Source: Bacteroidales bacterium UBA6117 (GTDB taxonomy: Bacteria > Bacteroidota > Bacteroidia > Bacteroidales > VadinHA17). Taken from it: DNA of 64,000 nucleotides. The stretch covers positions 366 to 64,365 of the forward strand of contig DIWB01000003.1 in NCBI GenBank assembly GCA_002428385.1. The letters run 5' to 3'. Made by a program: the position numbers and the translations under genes. Under the pieces are notes generated by a model, which had not been told where the DNA came from, made no database searches, and saw only the letters and a list, made by a program, of their open reading frames with translations. This document shows, in pieces, positions 14,101 through 22,178 of this stretch (positions are counted from its first letter, which is position 1; each line of letters opens with the position of its first letter).

Positions 14101-15582
14101 ATGAAAAGGTCAGCCTTAATAATTGTAGCAGCATTGCTTACATTCACCGGACTCAAAGCCCAGAATGTAGATGATGCCCTAAGATACTCCCAGATCTTCT
14201 ATACCGGTACAGCCAGGTTCATGTCGATGGGGGGGGCCTTCACAGCCCTCGGAGGCGATATGTCAACATTTAGCCAGAACCCTGCCGGAATCGGTGTGTT
14301 CAGATCTTCAGAAATATCACTGACACCGCAGCTTCTGCACGCAAAAACGTCAGCTAATTTCAACGGGATCTCCGATGATTATCTGTACAATTTTAACCTT
14401 GGCCAGGCAGGCGTTGTCGGAAACCTGATAAAGGGAAGCGGAACCACCGGATTGATCTCACTCAATGTCGGATACTCATTCAACAAGACGAACAACCTGA
14501 ACAATACGGCACGTATTCAGGGAAACAGCGCAAACAGCTCAATGGCCGATTACTGGGCTGATGAGGCTTACGGTATTTACTATGGCGATATCGGAGGCGC
14601 AGCAGGAATTGCTTACGATGCATGGATCATCGATACTTTAAGAGATGCGAATGCCAGTTACTATGGTACGGTTTTTTCGAATTACGGCGACAATCCAACA
14701 TCCGATTACGGTCAGAACATCAGGCGACTGATCACCAACCAGGGATATACGGGTGAACATGCAATATCAATCGGTGGAAACTATTCAAACAAAGTGTATT
14801 TCGGAGCAACCCTGGGTATCAACACTATGAGGTATACCGGACATTATGAGCATCTTGAGAAAGCCGACTATTTCCTCGATTCACAGTTCAGCGATTTCTC
14901 TTATGTTGAGCATTTTGAAAATACAGGAACAGGGGTTAACCTCAAGATTGGAGCTATAATCAGACCGGTAGAGGAACTCAGGATAGGAGTTGCTTTCCAT
15001 TCACCCACATTATATAAGATTAATGAGAGGTTCTATGATAACATCTCTTCCAACTTCACCGATGGTGGCCATTATGAATTCTATAACGACGAGCTGGTTT
15101 ATGAATATGCACTGACAACTCCTTTCAGGGTTCTTGCCGGTGTTGCTTACCAGATTGAAAAAACTGGTCTGCTTAGCGTTGATTATGAATTTGTTGATTA
15201 CAGCATGGTTAAGTTCTCGGAAACAGGCGATGACTATGATTACAGCGAGAAGAACCTTGATATAAAGAATACACTGCAACCTGCACATAACATCCGCGTT
15301 GGCGGCGAACTGAGGTTTAACAAACTGTACTTCAGGGGAGGATACGGCTATTACGGAAAAGTATTCAGGGAGGATGAGGTTAACAAGGATTTGTTCAACA
15401 GGTCAATTTCGGCAGGACTCGGCTTCAGGGAGCAGAACCTGAGTATCGACTTCGGCTTTACCAACATGAGGAACGAACAGAAATACATACTTTACGACTC
15501 TTACTACGAAACTGCAATGGCCAACCTGACTAACACCAGGAATATGTTTTCGGTTACCCTTGGCTATAAATTTGGCTTCTGA
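14101..15582 (+). CDS. FadL/TodX/PorV-like outer-membrane beta-barrel protein
   Basis: Signal peptide MKRSALIIVAALLTFTGLKAQ, a FadL-type N-terminal segment GTARFMSMGGAFTALGGDMSTFSQNPAG, alternating beta-strand pattern, and a C-terminal aromatic ...LGYKFGF. Confidence 0.7.
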   Translation: MKRSALIIVAALLTFTGLKAQNVDDALRYSQIFYTGTARFMSMGGAFTALGGDMSTFSQNPAGIGVFRSSEISLTPQLLHAKTSANFNGISDDYLYNFNLGQAGVVGNLIKGSGTTGLISLNVGYSFNKTNNLNNTARIQGNSANSSMADYWADEAYGIYYGDIGGAAGIAYDAWIIDTLRDANASYYGTVFSNYGDNPTSDYGQNIRRLITNQGYTGEHAISIGGNYSNKVYFGATLGINTMRYTGHYEHLEKADYFLDSQFSDFSYVEHFENTGTGVNLKIGAIIRPVEELRIGVAFHSPTLYKINERFYDNISSNFTDGGHYEFYNDELVYEYALTTPFRVLAGVAYQIEKTGLLSVDYEFVDYSMVKFSETGDDYDYSEKNLDIKNTLQPAHNIRVGGELRFNKLYFRGGYGYYGKVFREDEVNKDLFNRSISAGLGFREQNLSIDFGFTNMRNEQKYILYDSYYETAMANLTNTRNMFSVTLGYKFGF

Positions 15583-15602
15583 TTTACTTTACTGATTAAT
15601 AA

Positions 15603-15632
15603 AAAAACGGTGCCTGGCCAGGCACCGTTTTT
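15603..15632. terminator. Bidirectional rho-independent terminator
   Basis: Perfect 30-nt palindrome AAAAACGGTGCCTGG|CCAGGCACCGTTTTT, with an A-tract on one side and a T-tract on the other. It lies between the convergent FadL-like gene (+) and the WbqC gene (-). Confidence 0.8.
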
Positions 15633-15637
15633 ATTTG

Positions 15638-16240
15638 CTATAAAAACAAGGCTGCATCCGGACCAAGGTTGAAGATCAGATCGAGGATACTTAAACCCGG
15701 CACAAAACCGGCTTCTCCGAAAACCTGGATGTAAGGCTTTGAACTGAATACCTGTTCTCTTTTTGGTGAAATGCAGTACCTGTAATCCCCTGGCTTAAGG
15801 GTGGCCGGTTCAAACGATGAAGTGTAGTTTATACACTTATTAATATTCAAAAGGGTGAGGCACTCCTGAAGCAGTTCCTGGTTAAGGTCGATAAGAAAAC
15901 GATGTTTTTTTTGCAGAATGCTGAAGATGTTTTCGGAATAATAAAGGAAGTAAGGCGATCTTCCGTATGCTGATGTGAAGGCTCCTGTATGAACCTGTTG
16001 CCATCGTTTCGAATAATCAATCTGAATATCTTTTACCGGCGCTTTTAACCTGTCGCCTTTCGTGACCGGCACGGAGAGGATCAGTACACCATTTGATGCA
16101 AGTATCATGCATCTGTTCCTGTAGGTTTGTTTGAGGTAGTTTTCTTCCCGTTCTAAAAATACGATTGCTGCATCCCGGATAAGCCTGAAATAGCAGGCCG
16201 GAGGAAAGTATGCCGTGGAAAGAAGCAGTTTGTCGGCCAT
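15638..16240 (-). CDS. WbqC-family protein
   Basis: N-terminus LLLSTAYFPPACYFRLI...LEREENYLKQTYRNRCMILASNGVLILSVPV matches my memory of the WbqC-like family. It starts 9 nt after the larB stop. Confidence 0.7.
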   Translation of the reverse strand: MADKLLLSTAYFPPACYFRLIRDAAIVFLEREENYLKQTYRNRCMILASNGVLILSVPVTKGDRLKAPVKDIQIDYSKRWQQVHTGAFTSAYGRSPYFLYYSENIFSILQKKHRFLIDLNQELLQECLTLLNINKCINYTSSFEPATLKPGDYRYCISPKREQVFSSKPYIQVFGEAGFVPGLSILDLIFNLGPDAALFL

Positions 16241-16249
16241 CAGGGCAGA

Positions 16250-16999
16250 TCACTTCATATGGTTAATCATGCTTGCAGAGAAGCCGGCGCCGAAACCATT
16301 GTCGATATTGACAACAGTCACCCCTGAGGAACAGCTTGTAAGCATTGCCAGCAGCGCCGATATGCCTCCGAAACTTGCTCCGTATCCAACGCTTGTGGGA
16401 ACAGCGATAACGGGTGAGCTGACCAGTCCTCCGACAACACTTGCAAGGGCTCCCTCCATGCCGGCAATTACAATTACCACACGGCATTTCCTTATTTCGG
16501 GGAGTTTATCCACAAGGCGGTGTATGCCGGCAACGCCTGCATCATATATCCTGAGAACGTTGTTCCCGAGAAGTTCTGCAGTGACGGCAGCCTCTTCAGC
16601 AACCGGTATGTCGGAGGTGCCTGCAGTGATAACCGCAATAGCAGTTTCGGGCCGTTTCATTTCGCGGAAAGGGATGCTTATGATTCGTGCCTCCGGATAC
16701 CAGACGGCTTCGGGGAAAATTTCCTTCACCGCGTCGTACATTTCCCGGCCGGCCCTGGTTCCGATGACATTGTTCTTTTTCCCCGCCATCAGCCTGAAGA
16801 TTCCAATGACCTGGTCGGTAGTCTTCCCTGCGCAGTATACTATTTCAGGATACCCTGTCCTGATCTCCCGGTGATTATCAATTTTTGCATACCCGAGATC
16901 GGTAAACGGAAAGTCGTGCAGAATGTCGAGTGCTTCCTCTACGCTTTTACTTCCGTCTTTTATCTCCCTGAGGAGTGTTTCAATGTCGTCCCTGTTCAT
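16250..16999 (-). CDS. larB: Nickel-pincer cofactor biosynthesis protein LarB (NaAD carboxylase/hydrolase, PurE-like)
   Basis: 249 aa with DNHREIRTGYPEIVYCAGKT and a PurE-like ITAGTSDIPVAEEA...VIAGMEGALASVVGGL core. 4-nt overlap with larE. Confidence 0.9.
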   Translation of the reverse strand: MNRDDIETLLREIKDGSKSVEEALDILHDFPFTDLGYAKIDNHREIRTGYPEIVYCAGKTTDQVIGIFRLMAGKKNNVIGTRAGREMYDAVKEIFPEAVWYPEARIISIPFREMKRPETAIAVITAGTSDIPVAEEAAVTAELLGNNVLRIYDAGVAGIHRLVDKLPEIRKCRVVIVIAGMEGALASVVGGLVSSPVIAVPTSVGYGASFGGISALLAMLTSCSSGVTVVNIDNGFGAGFSASMINHMK

Positions 17000-17799
17000 G
17001 GTCTGGTGTTTTCAGGATCATAGGAGCCTGATCTGTATCCTTCGAGATCCAAAGATACATATCTGAATCCGATTTTCTTAAGTCCTGAGATAATAAGTTC
17101 TCTGTCAGGACTCTGAGTCATCTTGCTGAAATTGGCGGGGTGGCATTCTATCCGGGCCAGGTCGCCATGTATCCGGACCCTGGTTCCCGGATATCCGCTG
17201 GTTCGAAAGAAATCTTCCGCCTGTTCAACCATAAGGATCATTTCGGAAGTTACTGCAGTGTTATAAGGGATCCTGGTGAGCAGGCACGCCATAGAAGGTT
17301 TAGAGGCGATATTAAGTCCTTCTGCGGCCAGTAAATCCCTGATGTCCTGTTTTGTGAGGCCAGCTTCCATCAGGGGGCTTCTGACGCCCAGCTCCTTAAG
17401 CGCCCTGATTCCAGGTCGGTGAGAGTTGGCATCATCAGCGTTGGAGCCGTCGACGACGTGACTGAAACCGTTGTCAGCAGCAAAGCCAAGCAGTTGTCCG
17501 AACAGTATCTTTTTGCAGATGTAGCACCTGTCGGGTGGATTATTCCGGATTGGTTCAGGGAAGGAAAGATCCAATATACGGTGGCTGATTTTATGTGCCC
17601 TCGCAAATTCAGTAGCTTCTTCAATTTCCGAATCAGGCATATAGGGGGTACTGAGGGTGACTCCAGTTATTTTTTCTTTCAGGAGTGAATGTGCGCGAAG
17701 AAGGAGATATGAACTATCCACACCTCCTGAAAAACCTACGACAAAGGAATTCAGATCAATAAGCAAACGGTCAAGTTTATCCCTTTTGTTTTCGGTCAT
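16996..17799 (-). CDS. larE: LarE sulfur-insertion ATP pyrophosphatase
   Basis: PP-loop GFSGGVDSSYLL, 267 aa, with cysteines in DRCYICKK and SMACLLTRIPY. 4-nt overlaps with both larC and larB. Confidence 0.9.
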   Translation of the reverse strand: MTENKRDKLDRLLIDLNSFVVGFSGGVDSSYLLLRAHSLLKEKITGVTLSTPYMPDSEIEEATEFARAHKISHRILDLSFPEPIRNNPPDRCYICKKILFGQLLGFAADNGFSHVVDGSNADDANSHRPGIRALKELGVRSPLMEAGLTKQDIRDLLAAEGLNIASKPSMACLLTRIPYNTAVTSEMILMVEQAEDFFRTSGYPGTRVRIHGDLARIECHPANFSKMTQSPDRELIISGLKKIGFRYVSLDLEGYRSGSYDPENTRP

Positions 17800-18980
17800 G
17801 ATTGCTTTTTGTTGTTTACAATAACCGAGATGATATTGTTATAAACCTCCTTGACGGGGATGTTTCTTTCCGATGCAATCTTCCTGCATTCTTCGTATTC
17901 TGGTTTGACGGAGACCTGTTTCCCGCCGAAGAACGACCTTTTCACCGTTACCTCGCCGTAGATTGTGTCAACCTTAAAGGTTTCCCTTGCAAGTGTGTCC
18001 TTATTAAATTCAAATGATCTCATTCCGAGCGTGGTGGACTCTGTGAAGATTATCTCTTTCAGCTTGTTTTCCGAACCCTTTTCGCATATAACATTAAGAA
18101 TTACGCCGGGTCGTCCCTTTTTCATTATGATCTGAGTGAAAAATACATCAGCAGCGCCGGCCCTGAAAAGATTATCGGAAATATGGTCGTAAAACTCCGG
18201 ATTCATGTCGTCAATATTTGCTTCCAGCAAGACGGCCCTGTGTCCCCGCGCATTATCTCCGGCTGCTTCGCCCATAAAGACCCTGAGGAGGTTGGGTACC
18301 ACGGGATGTTCCTTATGTCCAATTCCGTAGCCTGTTTTTGTTATGGTAAGCTCTGGTCCGGTGCCGAATTTTGTCCCGAGGGCAGTGACAATTGCAGCTC
18401 CTGTAGGTGTTGTAGCCTCAAAATCAACGCCTCCGACCCTGACAGGAATTCCTTTTATTATTTCGGCTGTAGCCGGCGCCGGCACCGGCAGCCTGCCATG
18501 ATCGCAATTAACGAAGCCGCTCCCGAGTTCAACCTCCGAAACGTATACCGCTTCAACCCCAAGTGCAACGAAGCATATTGCGGCACCGGTAACGTCAATT
18601 ATTGAATCGACTGCTCCTACCTCGTGGAAATGAACCACTTCGAGTGGTATTCCGTGAACGGCAGCCTCAGCCTGTGCAATTTTCATGAATATCTTCATGC
18701 TCAATTCTTTAACCTTATCAGGCAAAGCTGATCCCGTGATTATCTTTTCAATATCCGATAAGTGCCTGTGTACATGTTCGTGCCTGGTTTGCCTTACGGT
18801 TATTCTAGTTCCTGTGATCCCGTGGCGCTGGCTCTTTTCTGAGATAAGTTCCCATCCCTCCAGTCGGAGCTTTTCAAGTTCGGATCTGAGAAATCCGGTA
18901 TCAATGCCAAGGTCGACCATGGCGCCGAGGTTCATGTCGCCGCTAATACCCGAAAAACAATCATAGTACAGTACTTTCAT
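17796..18980 (-). CDS. larC: LarC nickel insertase (DUF111 family)
   Basis: N-terminus MKVLYYDCFSGISGDMNLGAMVDLG is the DUF111/LarC signature. Single 394-aa ORF, no frameshift needed. Confidence 0.9.
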   Translation of the reverse strand: MKVLYYDCFSGISGDMNLGAMVDLGIDTGFLRSELEKLRLEGWELISEKSQRHGITGTRITVRQTRHEHVHRHLSDIEKIITGSALPDKVKELSMKIFMKIAQAEAAVHGIPLEVVHFHEVGAVDSIIDVTGAAICFVALGVEAVYVSEVELGSGFVNCDHGRLPVPAPATAEIIKGIPVRVGGVDFEATTPTGAAIVTALGTKFGTGPELTITKTGYGIGHKEHPVVPNLLRVFMGEAAGDNARGHRAVLLEANIDDMNPEFYDHISDNLFRAGAADVFFTQIIMKKGRPGVILNVICEKGSENKLKEIIFTESTTLGMRSFEFNKDTLARETFKVDTIYGEVTVKRSFFGGKQVSVKPEYEECRKIASERNIPVKEVYNNIISVIVNNKKQS

Positions 18981-19083
18981 ATACAGCCGTTAATTAAGTG
19001 TAACAAACAAAACCCGGGAATGTTGAGATCTCATGAACCGGATAATAAACAGTAATTCTGCGTAAATATACAATTTACAATCA

Positions 19084-19116
19084 TTGGAGAATTGATAAAA
19101 ATAATTCGTATTTTTG
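19084..19116 (+). promoter_or_regulatory. Candidate Bacteroidota sigma-A promoter for the DUF362 gene
   Basis: Perfect -7 box TATTTTTG (19109..19116), 41 nt before the ATG. The upstream TTG (19084..19086) sits at a slightly long 22-nt spacing. Confidence 0.3.
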
Positions 19117-19156
19117 TTGACTTTTCGGTTACGTATTAAAACCTGAGTTATCCATT

Positions 19157-20077
19157 ATGAGAAGGAGGGAGTTTTTCAGAAAGTCTGTCGGGGCCGGTAT
19201 TGCTGCCGGTGCTGCTTTCAGCATTGGAGGATACAATAAATTATGGGCAGCAGGGACTTCTCCGGAAAAATATGATATGGTTGCAATAATGGGTGGTGAA
19301 CCCGATGCAATGTTCGATCTGGGTATTCAGGAACTTGGCGGTATGGGAACATTCATCCGGAAAGGACAGAAGGTTCTTGTCAAACCAAATATAGGCTGGG
19401 ACGTTGTTCCGGAACTGGCAGCCAATACAAATCCCAATCTTGTAAAAAGGATTATTGAACACTGTTTCAGGGCAGGAGCAAAGGAAGTATATGTTTTCGA
19501 TCATACCTGCGACAACTGGGTCAACACTTACAAGAATTCGGGGATCGAAAAAGCTGCAAAAGCTGCAGGCGCCAAGGTAGTTCCCGGCAATACCGAGAAC
19601 TATTACCAGGAGATCGAGATACCCACAGCTGTGAAGCTTAAGAAAGCCAAGGTTCACGAACTCATTATGGAGACAGATGTATTTATAAATGTTCCCATAC
19701 TGAAAGACCATAACTCAACCAGAATGACAGCCTGTCTTAAAAACATGATGGGAGTAGTCTGGGACAGGGGGTACTGGCATTCGAATGATCTTCACCAGTG
19801 TATAGCCGATTATGCTCTGTTTGAAAAGAAACCCGTCCTCAATATCATTGATTGCTACAACGTGATGGTAAAGCATGGGCCGCAGGGTGTTTCAAAAGAG
19901 GATGTTGTCCAGATGAAATCACAGATCATAACCTCCGACTGGGTTGCAGGTGATGCCGCGGCCGCGAAAATGCTCAGCATTGATCCCCGGCGGGTTGATT
20001 ATATTCCCATTGCTCATAAGATGGGCCTTGGCAACATGAACCTTGAATCGCTCAATATCAAGCGTATAAAAATGTAA
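19157..20077 (+). CDS. Tat-signal DUF362 domain protein
   Basis: Twin-arginine leader MRRREFFRKSVGAGIAAGAAFS. The body (VLVKPNIGW..., PILKDHNSTRMTACLKNMMG, IIDCYNVMVKHGPQG) matches my memory of DUF362. Confidence 0.8.
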   Translation: MRRREFFRKSVGAGIAAGAAFSIGGYNKLWAAGTSPEKYDMVAIMGGEPDAMFDLGIQELGGMGTFIRKGQKVLVKPNIGWDVVPELAANTNPNLVKRIIEHCFRAGAKEVYVFDHTCDNWVNTYKNSGIEKAAKAAGAKVVPGNTENYYQEIEIPTAVKLKKAKVHELIMETDVFINVPILKDHNSTRMTACLKNMMGVVWDRGYWHSNDLHQCIADYALFEKKPVLNIIDCYNVMVKHGPQGVSKEDVVQMKSQIITSDWVAGDAAAAKMLSIDPRRVDYIPIAHKMGLGNMNLESLNIKRIKM

Positions 20078-20083
20078 TTTGTA

Positions 20084-21646
20084 ATGACATCTTCCTTCCT
20101 CAGGAAATTAAGGATTTTGTTTTCTTCCATTGTCCTGATTTGTTTTTTTTTCGTTTTTGCTGACTTCATGTCAGTAATACCGGAGAAATACATTAATTCT
20201 CTTTTATACCTTCAGTTTGTTCCTTCGGCGCTTAAGTATATCAACCTGACGACAATGGCAGCAGGAGGGTTCATCATTGTTCTCCTGCTCACACTTCTTA
20301 CCGGCAGGACATATTGTTCATTTCTTTGTCCGCTGGGGATCGGACAGGATCTCTTCAGCCGTATCGGAGGCAGGATTAAAAGGAAATTCAGGAGATTCGG
20401 ATATAAAAAGCCGCATACAATAATAAGATACTCCCTGCTTGTCCTGACTCTTGGGACCGCTATTTTCTATGGACTTTACCTGGTTACTCTTCTTGATCCC
20501 TACAGCATATTCGGTAGGTTTATGACTTATCTGGGCGAGCCTGTGATTTTGCTTATCAATAATTTTCTGACCTGGCTGCTCGGAAAATTCGATGTATACA
20601 CTCTCCATCATGTTGATATCAGGGGATTCAACCCGATGACATATGCTGTTCCTGTCGCATTCTTTCTGCTTGTCGGGACAATGTCCTTTGTGAAAGGAAG
20701 GCTTTATTGCAATATGATCTGCCCGGTAGGCACTCTTCTGGGCCTGATTTCGAAGGTCTCGATATTCAGGGTCAAATTCAGCGAAAGCAAATGCACCCGT
20801 TGCGGACGTTGTTCCGTACGATGCAAAGCATCATGCATCGATTTCCTTAATTATAACATAGATGTCAGCCGCTGTGTAAATTGCTTCAACTGTATTGATG
20901 TTTGTCCTGAAAAGGCGCTTTCCTATAGTTTTATCGCCTCAAAGGAAAAGCCCGCCAATACTGACGAAGGCAGGCGGAAATTTGTTGCAGGATCGCTTCT
21001 GATGCTTTTAGGGATTACCACCAGTGCCAGAAACCAGGATCAGGAAGGAGCGCCTGTCCCGCGTAAAGAGTCGACTGTAAAAGAGCCAAGAAATTTTCCG
21101 GTATGCCCTCCCGGAGCAGGATCGATGGAGGAATTCACAAAATATTGTACGGCATGTTCCCTCTGCATCAATGCTTGTCCGAACAATGTCCTTCAACCTG
21201 CCGTGATGCAGTATGGCATTGCCGGATTCATGCAGCCGGTTATGGATTATCACAGGAGCTTCTGTACTTTTAACTGCACCGTCTGTACTGAAATATGTCC
21301 CACAAATGCCCTCAAACCTCTGCTCCTTGAAGCTAAAAAACTTACTCAGTTAGGTAAGGTTTTCTTTATAAAGGACAATTGCATAGTCAAGACCGAAAAG
21401 ACAGCCTGTGGAGCCTGCTCCGAAGCCTGTCCCACAAAAGCAGTGTATATGGTGCCTTACGAGGGTAATCTGGTGATACCGGAGACCAATCAGGACATCT
21501 GTATCGGATGCGGACATTGCGAATATGCTTGCCCGGTTACACCTTACAAAGCCATATTCGTCGATGGAAATCCTGTTCACATGGCTGCCGCCAAACCCGA
21601 AATCAAAGAAGCCGAAATCACAACCCCGGAGGAGTTTCCTTTCTGA
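20084..21646 (+). CDS. Membrane-anchored polyferredoxin (NapH/MauN-like N-domain plus multiple 4Fe-4S motifs)
   Basis: TM helices carrying CSFLCPLG and CNMICPVG. Then CTRCGRCSVRC, CVNCFNCIDVCP, CTACSLCINACP, CTVCTEICP, CGACSEACP and CIGCGHCEYACP. Starts 6 nt after the DUF362 gene. Confidence 0.8.
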   Translation: MTSSFLRKLRILFSSIVLICFFFVFADFMSVIPEKYINSLLYLQFVPSALKYINLTTMAAGGFIIVLLLTLLTGRTYCSFLCPLGIGQDLFSRIGGRIKRKFRRFGYKKPHTIIRYSLLVLTLGTAIFYGLYLVTLLDPYSIFGRFMTYLGEPVILLINNFLTWLLGKFDVYTLHHVDIRGFNPMTYAVPVAFFLLVGTMSFVKGRLYCNMICPVGTLLGLISKVSIFRVKFSESKCTRCGRCSVRCKASCIDFLNYNIDVSRCVNCFNCIDVCPEKALSYSFIASKEKPANTDEGRRKFVAGSLLMLLGITTSARNQDQEGAPVPRKESTVKEPRNFPVCPPGAGSMEEFTKYCTACSLCINACPNNVLQPAVMQYGIAGFMQPVMDYHRSFCTFNCTVCTEICPTNALKPLLLEAKKLTQLGKVFFIKDNCIVKTEKTACGACSEACPTKAVYMVPYEGNLVIPETNQDICIGCGHCEYACPVTPYKAIFVDGNPVHMAAAKPEIKEAEITTPEEFPF

Positions 21647-21686
21647 TACAGGGGAATAACTAAATTCTTGTCAAACATGATTTTTG

Positions 21687-21719
21687 TTTGCCTGAGCTAT
21701 TTTTAAGCTGTTAATTTTG
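21687..21719 (+). promoter_or_regulatory. Candidate Bacteroidota promoter for the mce-mmd-cit operon
   Basis: TTTG (21687..21690), 21 nt, then TAATTTTG (21712..21719), 33 nt before the mce ATG. Both boxes match the TTTG / TAnnTTTG consensus. Confidence 0.5.
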
Positions 21720-21752
21720 CTTAAATTATAGTCATCAAAAACATGCTCTTTT

Positions 21753-22178
21753 ATGAAACCTGCACATATAGAACATATTGGTATTGCAGTAGCCAGTCTG
21801 GCAGAATCGGTGGCGTTTTACGAGAAGGTTCTCGGCCTGAAATGCTATAATATTGAGGAGGTTCCGGATCAGAAAGTCAGAACTGCTTTCTTTATGGTCG
21901 GACAGACAAAGATTGAACTGCTTGAGTCGACTGACCCTCAGGGTACAATTGCCCGCTTTATTGAGAAGAGGGGGGAGGGCATCCACCACATTGCATTTGC
22001 CGTGGAAAACATTGAGGAAAAGCTAAGGCATGCGGAAAAGGAGGGAGTCAGACTGATCGACACCAAGCCAAGGAAAGGCGCAGAAGGCCTTGAAATTGCA
22101 TTCCTTCACCCGGGGTCGGCACACGGGGTACTTATCGAGCTTTGCGAACATCCCGGTCACGAACAGCCGGAAAAGTAA
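21753..22178 (+). CDS. mce: Methylmalonyl-CoA epimerase (VOC/glyoxalase fold)
   Basis: 141 aa. [23 protein letters not shown] ... KIELLE ... GEGIHHIAF ... GVLIEL is typical of the epimerase. It precedes the carboxyltransferase. Confidence 0.85.

Follow-up and report, generated by a model that had tools for sequence, protein, structure and literature searches.

A nickel-pincer nucleotide operon without larA lies beside a DUF362-polyferredoxin gene pair, a candidate user of the cofactor

Results

A complete lar operon ending in wbqC

The stretch of DNA analysed here (64 kb, hereafter the window) contains three genes for the synthesis of the nickel-pincer nucleotide (NPN) and a gene of the WbqC family, which by the listing of open reading frames (ORFs) and the sequence are all on the minus strand and are arranged head to tail in the order larC-larE-larB-wbqC. 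The unit and its neighbours are laid out as follows:

14101-15582, convergent to wbqC: porin-like gene, which has the terminator at 15603..15632 in common with wbqC
15603..15632, both strands: bidirectional intrinsic terminator (13-bp stem with 6 GC pairs, 4-nt loop, T-runs on both strands)
15638..16240, minus strand: WbqC-family gene (200 aa), last of the co-directional unit
16250..16999, minus strand: larB (249 aa), NaAD carboxylase/hydrolase
16996..17799, minus strand: larE (267 aa), PP-loop ATP-dependent sulfur insertase
17796..18980, minus strand: larC (394 aa, a single unsplit ORF), CTP-dependent nickel insertase (cyclometallase)
18981..19156: 176-bp intergenic region that separates the divergent larC and DUF362 genes
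19157..20077, plus strand: DUF362 protein gene (306 aa, PF04015, twin-arginine signal)
20084..21646, plus strand: membrane polyferredoxin gene (520 aa), starting 7 nt after the DUF362 gene

A preliminary description of this DNA had identified the three lar genes, and all three products indeed score above curated equivalog cut-offs. LarC matches PF01969 (E 6e-147, over 1-375/375) and the NCBIfam models of both LarC1 (TIGR00299, 218 bits, cut-off 90) and LarC2 (NF052512, 141.8 bits, cut-off 50). LarE reaches 282.5 bits with TIGR00268 (cut-off 150) and carries the PP-loop motif FSGGVDSS, as well as Cys92 and Cys95 in a CxxC motif and Cys172. These three cysteines suggest an enzyme of the [4Fe-4S]-dependent type that is described for Thermotoga (PMC9283937). 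LarB scores 296.3 bits with NF033503 (cut-off 175), has an AIRC domain (E 3.6e-13) and is distinct from PurE, whose model gives merely 31 bits against 149.6. Judged by sequence, larC-larE-larB is an intact and complete operon for NPN synthesis. It resembles the lar locus of Lactiplantibacillus plantarum (larA with larB, larC1/C2 and larE) in grouping LarB, LarC and LarE tightly, but differs from it by the absence of larA, by an uninterrupted larC, by the order C-E-B, by a LarE with three cysteines instead of the single sacrificial one, and by the addition of a terminal wbqC and of the divergent DUF362-polyferredoxin pair.

The four minus-strand genes had been proposed to be one transcription unit, and the details given for it are borne out. 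The ATGA overlaps at larC/larE and larE/larB are both present, wbqC begins 9 nt after the larB stop (TGA tctgccctg ATG), and the strong bidirectional terminator at the end of the unit is the sole strong terminator-like site in 15400-21900. There are no terminator-like sites on the minus strand inside larC, larE, larB or wbqC, and the 400 nt that precede wbqC hold no Bacteroidetes-type -7 motif (TAnnTTTG). Co-transcription is plausible, and wbqC is very probably carried on the same transcript as the lar genes. On the plus strand, a Bacteroidetes-type -7 motif (TATTTTTG) at 19109 lies 48 nt before the ATG of the DUF362 gene; it is a motif match, one of 41 in the 64 kb, and as such no evidence of function.

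No LarA in the window or around related loci

LarA was said to be missing from the 64 kb, and our searches agree. Pfam scans of all plausible window ORFs of at least 150 aa (48 ORFs) gave no Lar_N/DUF2088, no aldo-keto reductase (PF00248) and no ornithine cyclodeaminase, and a six-frame tblastn of the 64 kb with LarA of L. plantarum, a query checked against PDB 5huq, had a best E of 0.29. Yet the DUF362 protein of the window shares its Pfam clan with the N-terminal domain of LarA. No LarA was found in the flanks covered for 85 related loci (up to 10 kb) either. Hundreds of prokaryotes are stated to produce the nickel-pincer cofactor without LarA (PMC13524815). Among 80 metagenome loci anchored on LarC none has LarA, most have no recognisable client nearby and many consist of larC alone. 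In Acetoanaerobium noterae, nothing recognisable stands beside the larB-larC pair.

The premise that LarA-family enzymes are the only users of the cofactor is outdated, because two others have so far been published, both found through gene neighbourhoods: the aldo-keto reductase NphT and an NPAD-dependent ornithine cyclodeaminase (PMC13524815). We found an aldo-keto reductase gene adjoining orphan larBCE in locus L104 and in C. butyricum; this is the arrangement published for NphT, and the two loci serve as positive controls for guilt by association. The window invites the same logic as the orphan clusters of NphT and the cyclodeaminase, where LarA is absent and the neighbouring gene is the candidate client, but its neighbour encodes a DUF362 protein, and neither a PF00248 protein of the NphT type nor a cyclodeaminase stands beside larBCE. 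The main text of PMC13524815 does not mention DUF362, and in the literature that we searched DUF362 and the cofactor occur together in a single paper, where DUF362 serves solely as a phylogenetic outgroup.

The position of wbqC is probably a legacy

The last gene of the unit encodes a genuine WbqC-family protein (PF08889, 123 bits against 21.3, E 2e-35) that matches no NCBIfam model. The family had been described as lacking a defined biochemistry, in line with the literature searched, where we found none. The close junction with larB had led to the proposal that this protein is a candidate new user of the cofactor, an enzyme that modifies it or an accessory factor. We surveyed the context of wbqC in 85 loci, with flanks of up to 10 kb; 79 species-level loci were informative. 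The arrangement larB-wbqC was found in 35 of the 79, and in every one of these, as in the window, wbqC starts 4-20 nt after larB. In L042 and L098 the flanks differ on both sides and wbqC still follows larB. This persistence and the lack of an internal terminator or promoter motif speak for a functional tie, and so does the enzyme-like character of the protein, in which many charged residues, Lys78 and His84 among them, are invariant. But the remaining 44 loci have no lar gene in the same flanks, and in 30 of these lepB lies at most 3.5 kb upstream of wbqC.

Orthologues of this WbqC are spread throughout Bacteroidales, where their usual place is behind dapB-lepB-lepB. Those without lar genes in the flanks covered, at 38-47% identity, include proteins of Bacteroides, Parabacteroides, Prevotella, Phocaeicola, Butyricimonas and Paludibacter. 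A tree and the conserved residues place the lar-linked and the lepB-linked proteins in a single orthologous family: 32 positions are conserved at 93% or more and hold an identical residue in the two sets, and only 3 positions are specific to the lar set; there is no lar-specific residue signature. The WbqC of the window is therefore an orthologue of the terminal gene of the dapB-lepB-lepB-wbqC cluster, from which the window and one clade differ in having larB, not lepB, directly upstream. All lar-linked loci also have their surroundings in common (porin, proS, methylmalonyl-CoA epimerase), so that the lar-wbqC adjacency, restricted to a single syntenic clade, amounts to about one evolutionary event. 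Two loci without lar genes in the flanks presumably represent the older layout of the wbqC locus: L038, with dapB-lepB-lepB-methyltransferase-wbqC ahead of porin..proS, and L054, where an oppositely directed DUF362-polyferredoxin pair sits between dapB-lepB and wbqC, again ahead of porin..proS.

WbqC occurs in just 2 of the 80 LarC-anchored metagenome loci, both of which also carry DUF362. Comparisons of WbqC with LarA, with DUF362 and with solved structures detected no similarity, and elsewhere the family is found in glycan and amino-sugar contexts, such as proSx-GT4-WbqC-LmbE-murG operons (PMC10404621) and a capsule locus of B. thetaiotaomicron, next to a DegT aminotransferase (PMC10434189). 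Moreover, a gene reliant on an upstream promoter stays attached to it regardless of function. A role of WbqC as user, modifier or loading factor of the cofactor is not supported by these data and seems to us improbable; the gene probably stands at the tail of the operon by position only.

A divergent DUF362-polyferredoxin pair

The divergently transcribed pair beside larC had been overlooked in the preliminary description. In the test for the LarA superfamily, PF04015 (E 2e-46) was the sole Pfam family matched by the DUF362 protein, which has no recognised cofactor domain. Its N-terminus, MRRREFFRKSVGAGIAAGAAFSIGGYNKLWA/AG (MRRREFFRK...LWA/AG), has the twin-arginine motif, the hydrophobic region and the AxA-like site of a Tat substrate, so that export is predicted. 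The RRxF motif recurs in all 27 close homologues and in 46 of 57 distant ones, and Pfam TAT_signal matches 17 of the latter 57 (best E 1e-7). Conservation of this signal implies that the protein would carry a cofactor put together in the cytoplasm.

DUF362 and DUF2088, the N-terminal domain of LarA, are placed in one Pfam clan, CL0471 (PMC11770544). His185, Lys195 and His208 of the window protein are at least 90% conserved in the 57 homologues of 31-51% identity, and this His-x9-Lys...His segment aligns with His174, Lys184 and His200 of LarA, which are the catalytic histidine, the cofactor tether and the nickel ligand, respectively. A profile-profile comparison by hhalign puts DUF362 and LarA in the same register with weak significance (P 0.033). 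The LarA HMM does not match the window protein directly, and Lar_N matches 1 of the 57 homologues (E 0.081), so family models do not assign the protein to the LarA superfamily. The LarA profile does match the DUF362 protein of L108, an independent metagenomic lineage, with E 3.8e-4 among 4293 ORFs. This alignment pairs HEMAGFGGAIKN..EQH with PHFxAGFSGGRKS..NH and, with L108 as a bridging sequence, brings the same three residues of the window protein into line. The window protein also departs from LarA in several respects: with 306 aa it lacks the C-terminal domain that gives Gln295 and Lys298 to the LarA active site, the DUF362 family as a whole does not conserve an equivalent of the catalytic His108, and a Tat signal and an obligatory Fe-S partner set the protein apart from the LarA 2-hydroxyacid racemases and epimerases. 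The quality of both AlphaFold models (pLDDT 53-55) was too low for inspection of a pocket.

The partner follows DUF362 in all 30 related and 7 distant loci. It has about four transmembrane (TM) helices and four CxxCxxCxxxC motifs, and TM2 and TM4 are followed by the two CX3CP motifs; its N-terminal half is NapH/MauN-like, its C-terminal half NapF/NapG-like, and it matches Fer4_5 and many Fer4 families. The score with TIGR02163 (NapH/MauN), 94.6 bits, is below the cut-off of 213, and the four-TM, two-CX3CP architecture is present. The likeness to the NapGH quinol dehydrogenase module thus consists in the four helices, the two CX3CP motifs and 4Fe-4S motifs of the cytoplasmic type, and extends to partnership with a periplasmic protein that is predicted to be Tat-exported. 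It differs from NapH/MauN by the extra multi-cluster C-terminal half and by the lack of nap genes.

The pair adjoins lar genes in 30 of the 35 lar-linked loci, and 4 of the 5 exceptions are on truncated contigs. In L016 the lar-wbqC unit is present and no DUF362 gene is nearby; in L042, DUF362-polyferredoxin-larB-wbqC are all co-directional. In L108, larC-larE-larB-NicO-DUF362::2x[4Fe-4S] form one co-directional cluster. Adjacency of a Tat-type DUF362 gene to lar genes is, like that of wbqC, essentially restricted to one clade and L042, and L108 alone is independent, with a DUF362 of a different subfamily. None of seven sampled distant Tat-DUF362-polyferredoxin pairs (56-61% identity; Ignavibacteriota, Tenuifilaceae and others) has lar genes within 10 kb.

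Discussion

Our results make DUF362 a better candidate user of the cofactor than WbqC, because of its kinship with the LarA clan, the aligned His/Lys/His residues and the lar-DUF362 operon of L108. The best joint explanation, to which we give about an even chance, is that the adjacency of wbqC is positional and that the DUF362-polyferredoxin pair is the client of NPN. In the ancestor, wbqC would have ended a dapB-lepB-(lepB)-wbqC cluster beside the porin...proS block; the module of DUF362-polyferredoxin and lar would then have come to stand immediately upstream of wbqC in a single clade of Bacteroidales and been inherited vertically since. LarB would carboxylate and hydrolyse NaAD, the three-Cys LarE would insert two sulfurs and LarC would insert Ni. 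The finished NPN might be loaded in the cytoplasm onto the DUF362 protein, with Lys195 as putative tether and His208 as putative nickel ligand, by analogy with Lys184 and His200 of LarA. The folded holoprotein would be exported via Tat and act together with the NapH-like polyferredoxin on the periplasmic side, where a hydride taken from or given to the substrate could be exchanged with the Fe-S chain, whereas LarA gives the hydride back to the substrate it came from.

It is also conceivable, though in our view less likely, that neither neighbour is the client and that both adjacencies are accidents of history. NPN would then go to an enzyme encoded elsewhere in the genome, of which 64 kb are visible: a racemase of the LarA family, an aldo-keto reductase like NphT, a cyclodeaminase or some other enzyme. 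The LarC loci that lack LarA and mostly any recognisable client, the bare larB-larC pair of A. noterae and the distant DUF362-polyferredoxin pairs without lar genes nearby would all fit such an arrangement. Yet it does not account for the neighbour's clan membership and conserved His/Lys/His, for the independent operon of L108 or for the co-directional DUF362-polyferredoxin and larB unit of L042, and no LarA turned up in the flanks covered for any of the 85 related loci.

We tentatively advance a broader proposal: with the DUF362 proteins, the LarA clan may have a second branch, so far unrecognised, that also holds NPN but is wired to Fe-S clusters, as a Tat-exported protein with a polyferredoxin in the lineage of the window and as a cytoplasmic DUF362::2x[4Fe-4S] fusion in L108. 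The locus offers a concrete third non-LarA candidate user, related to LarA and equipped with a Tat signal and an Fe-S partner, that existing co-expression and mass-spectrometry pipelines can test. Should it prove true, nickel-pincer chemistry would go beyond the internal shuttling of hydride and include redox reactions coupled to Fe-S clusters, with the first NPN enzyme to exchange electrons with an external Fe-S chain and the first outside the cytoplasm, in the periplasm, and a very large DUF family would gain a function. The wbqC gene carries a caution for pipelines that rely on guilt by association, as even a tight 9-nt junction can be a positional legacy.

Finally, in lineages without adjacent lar genes a conserved 5-TM protein occupies the position of lar; one might speculate that it takes up the cofactor or a precursor.

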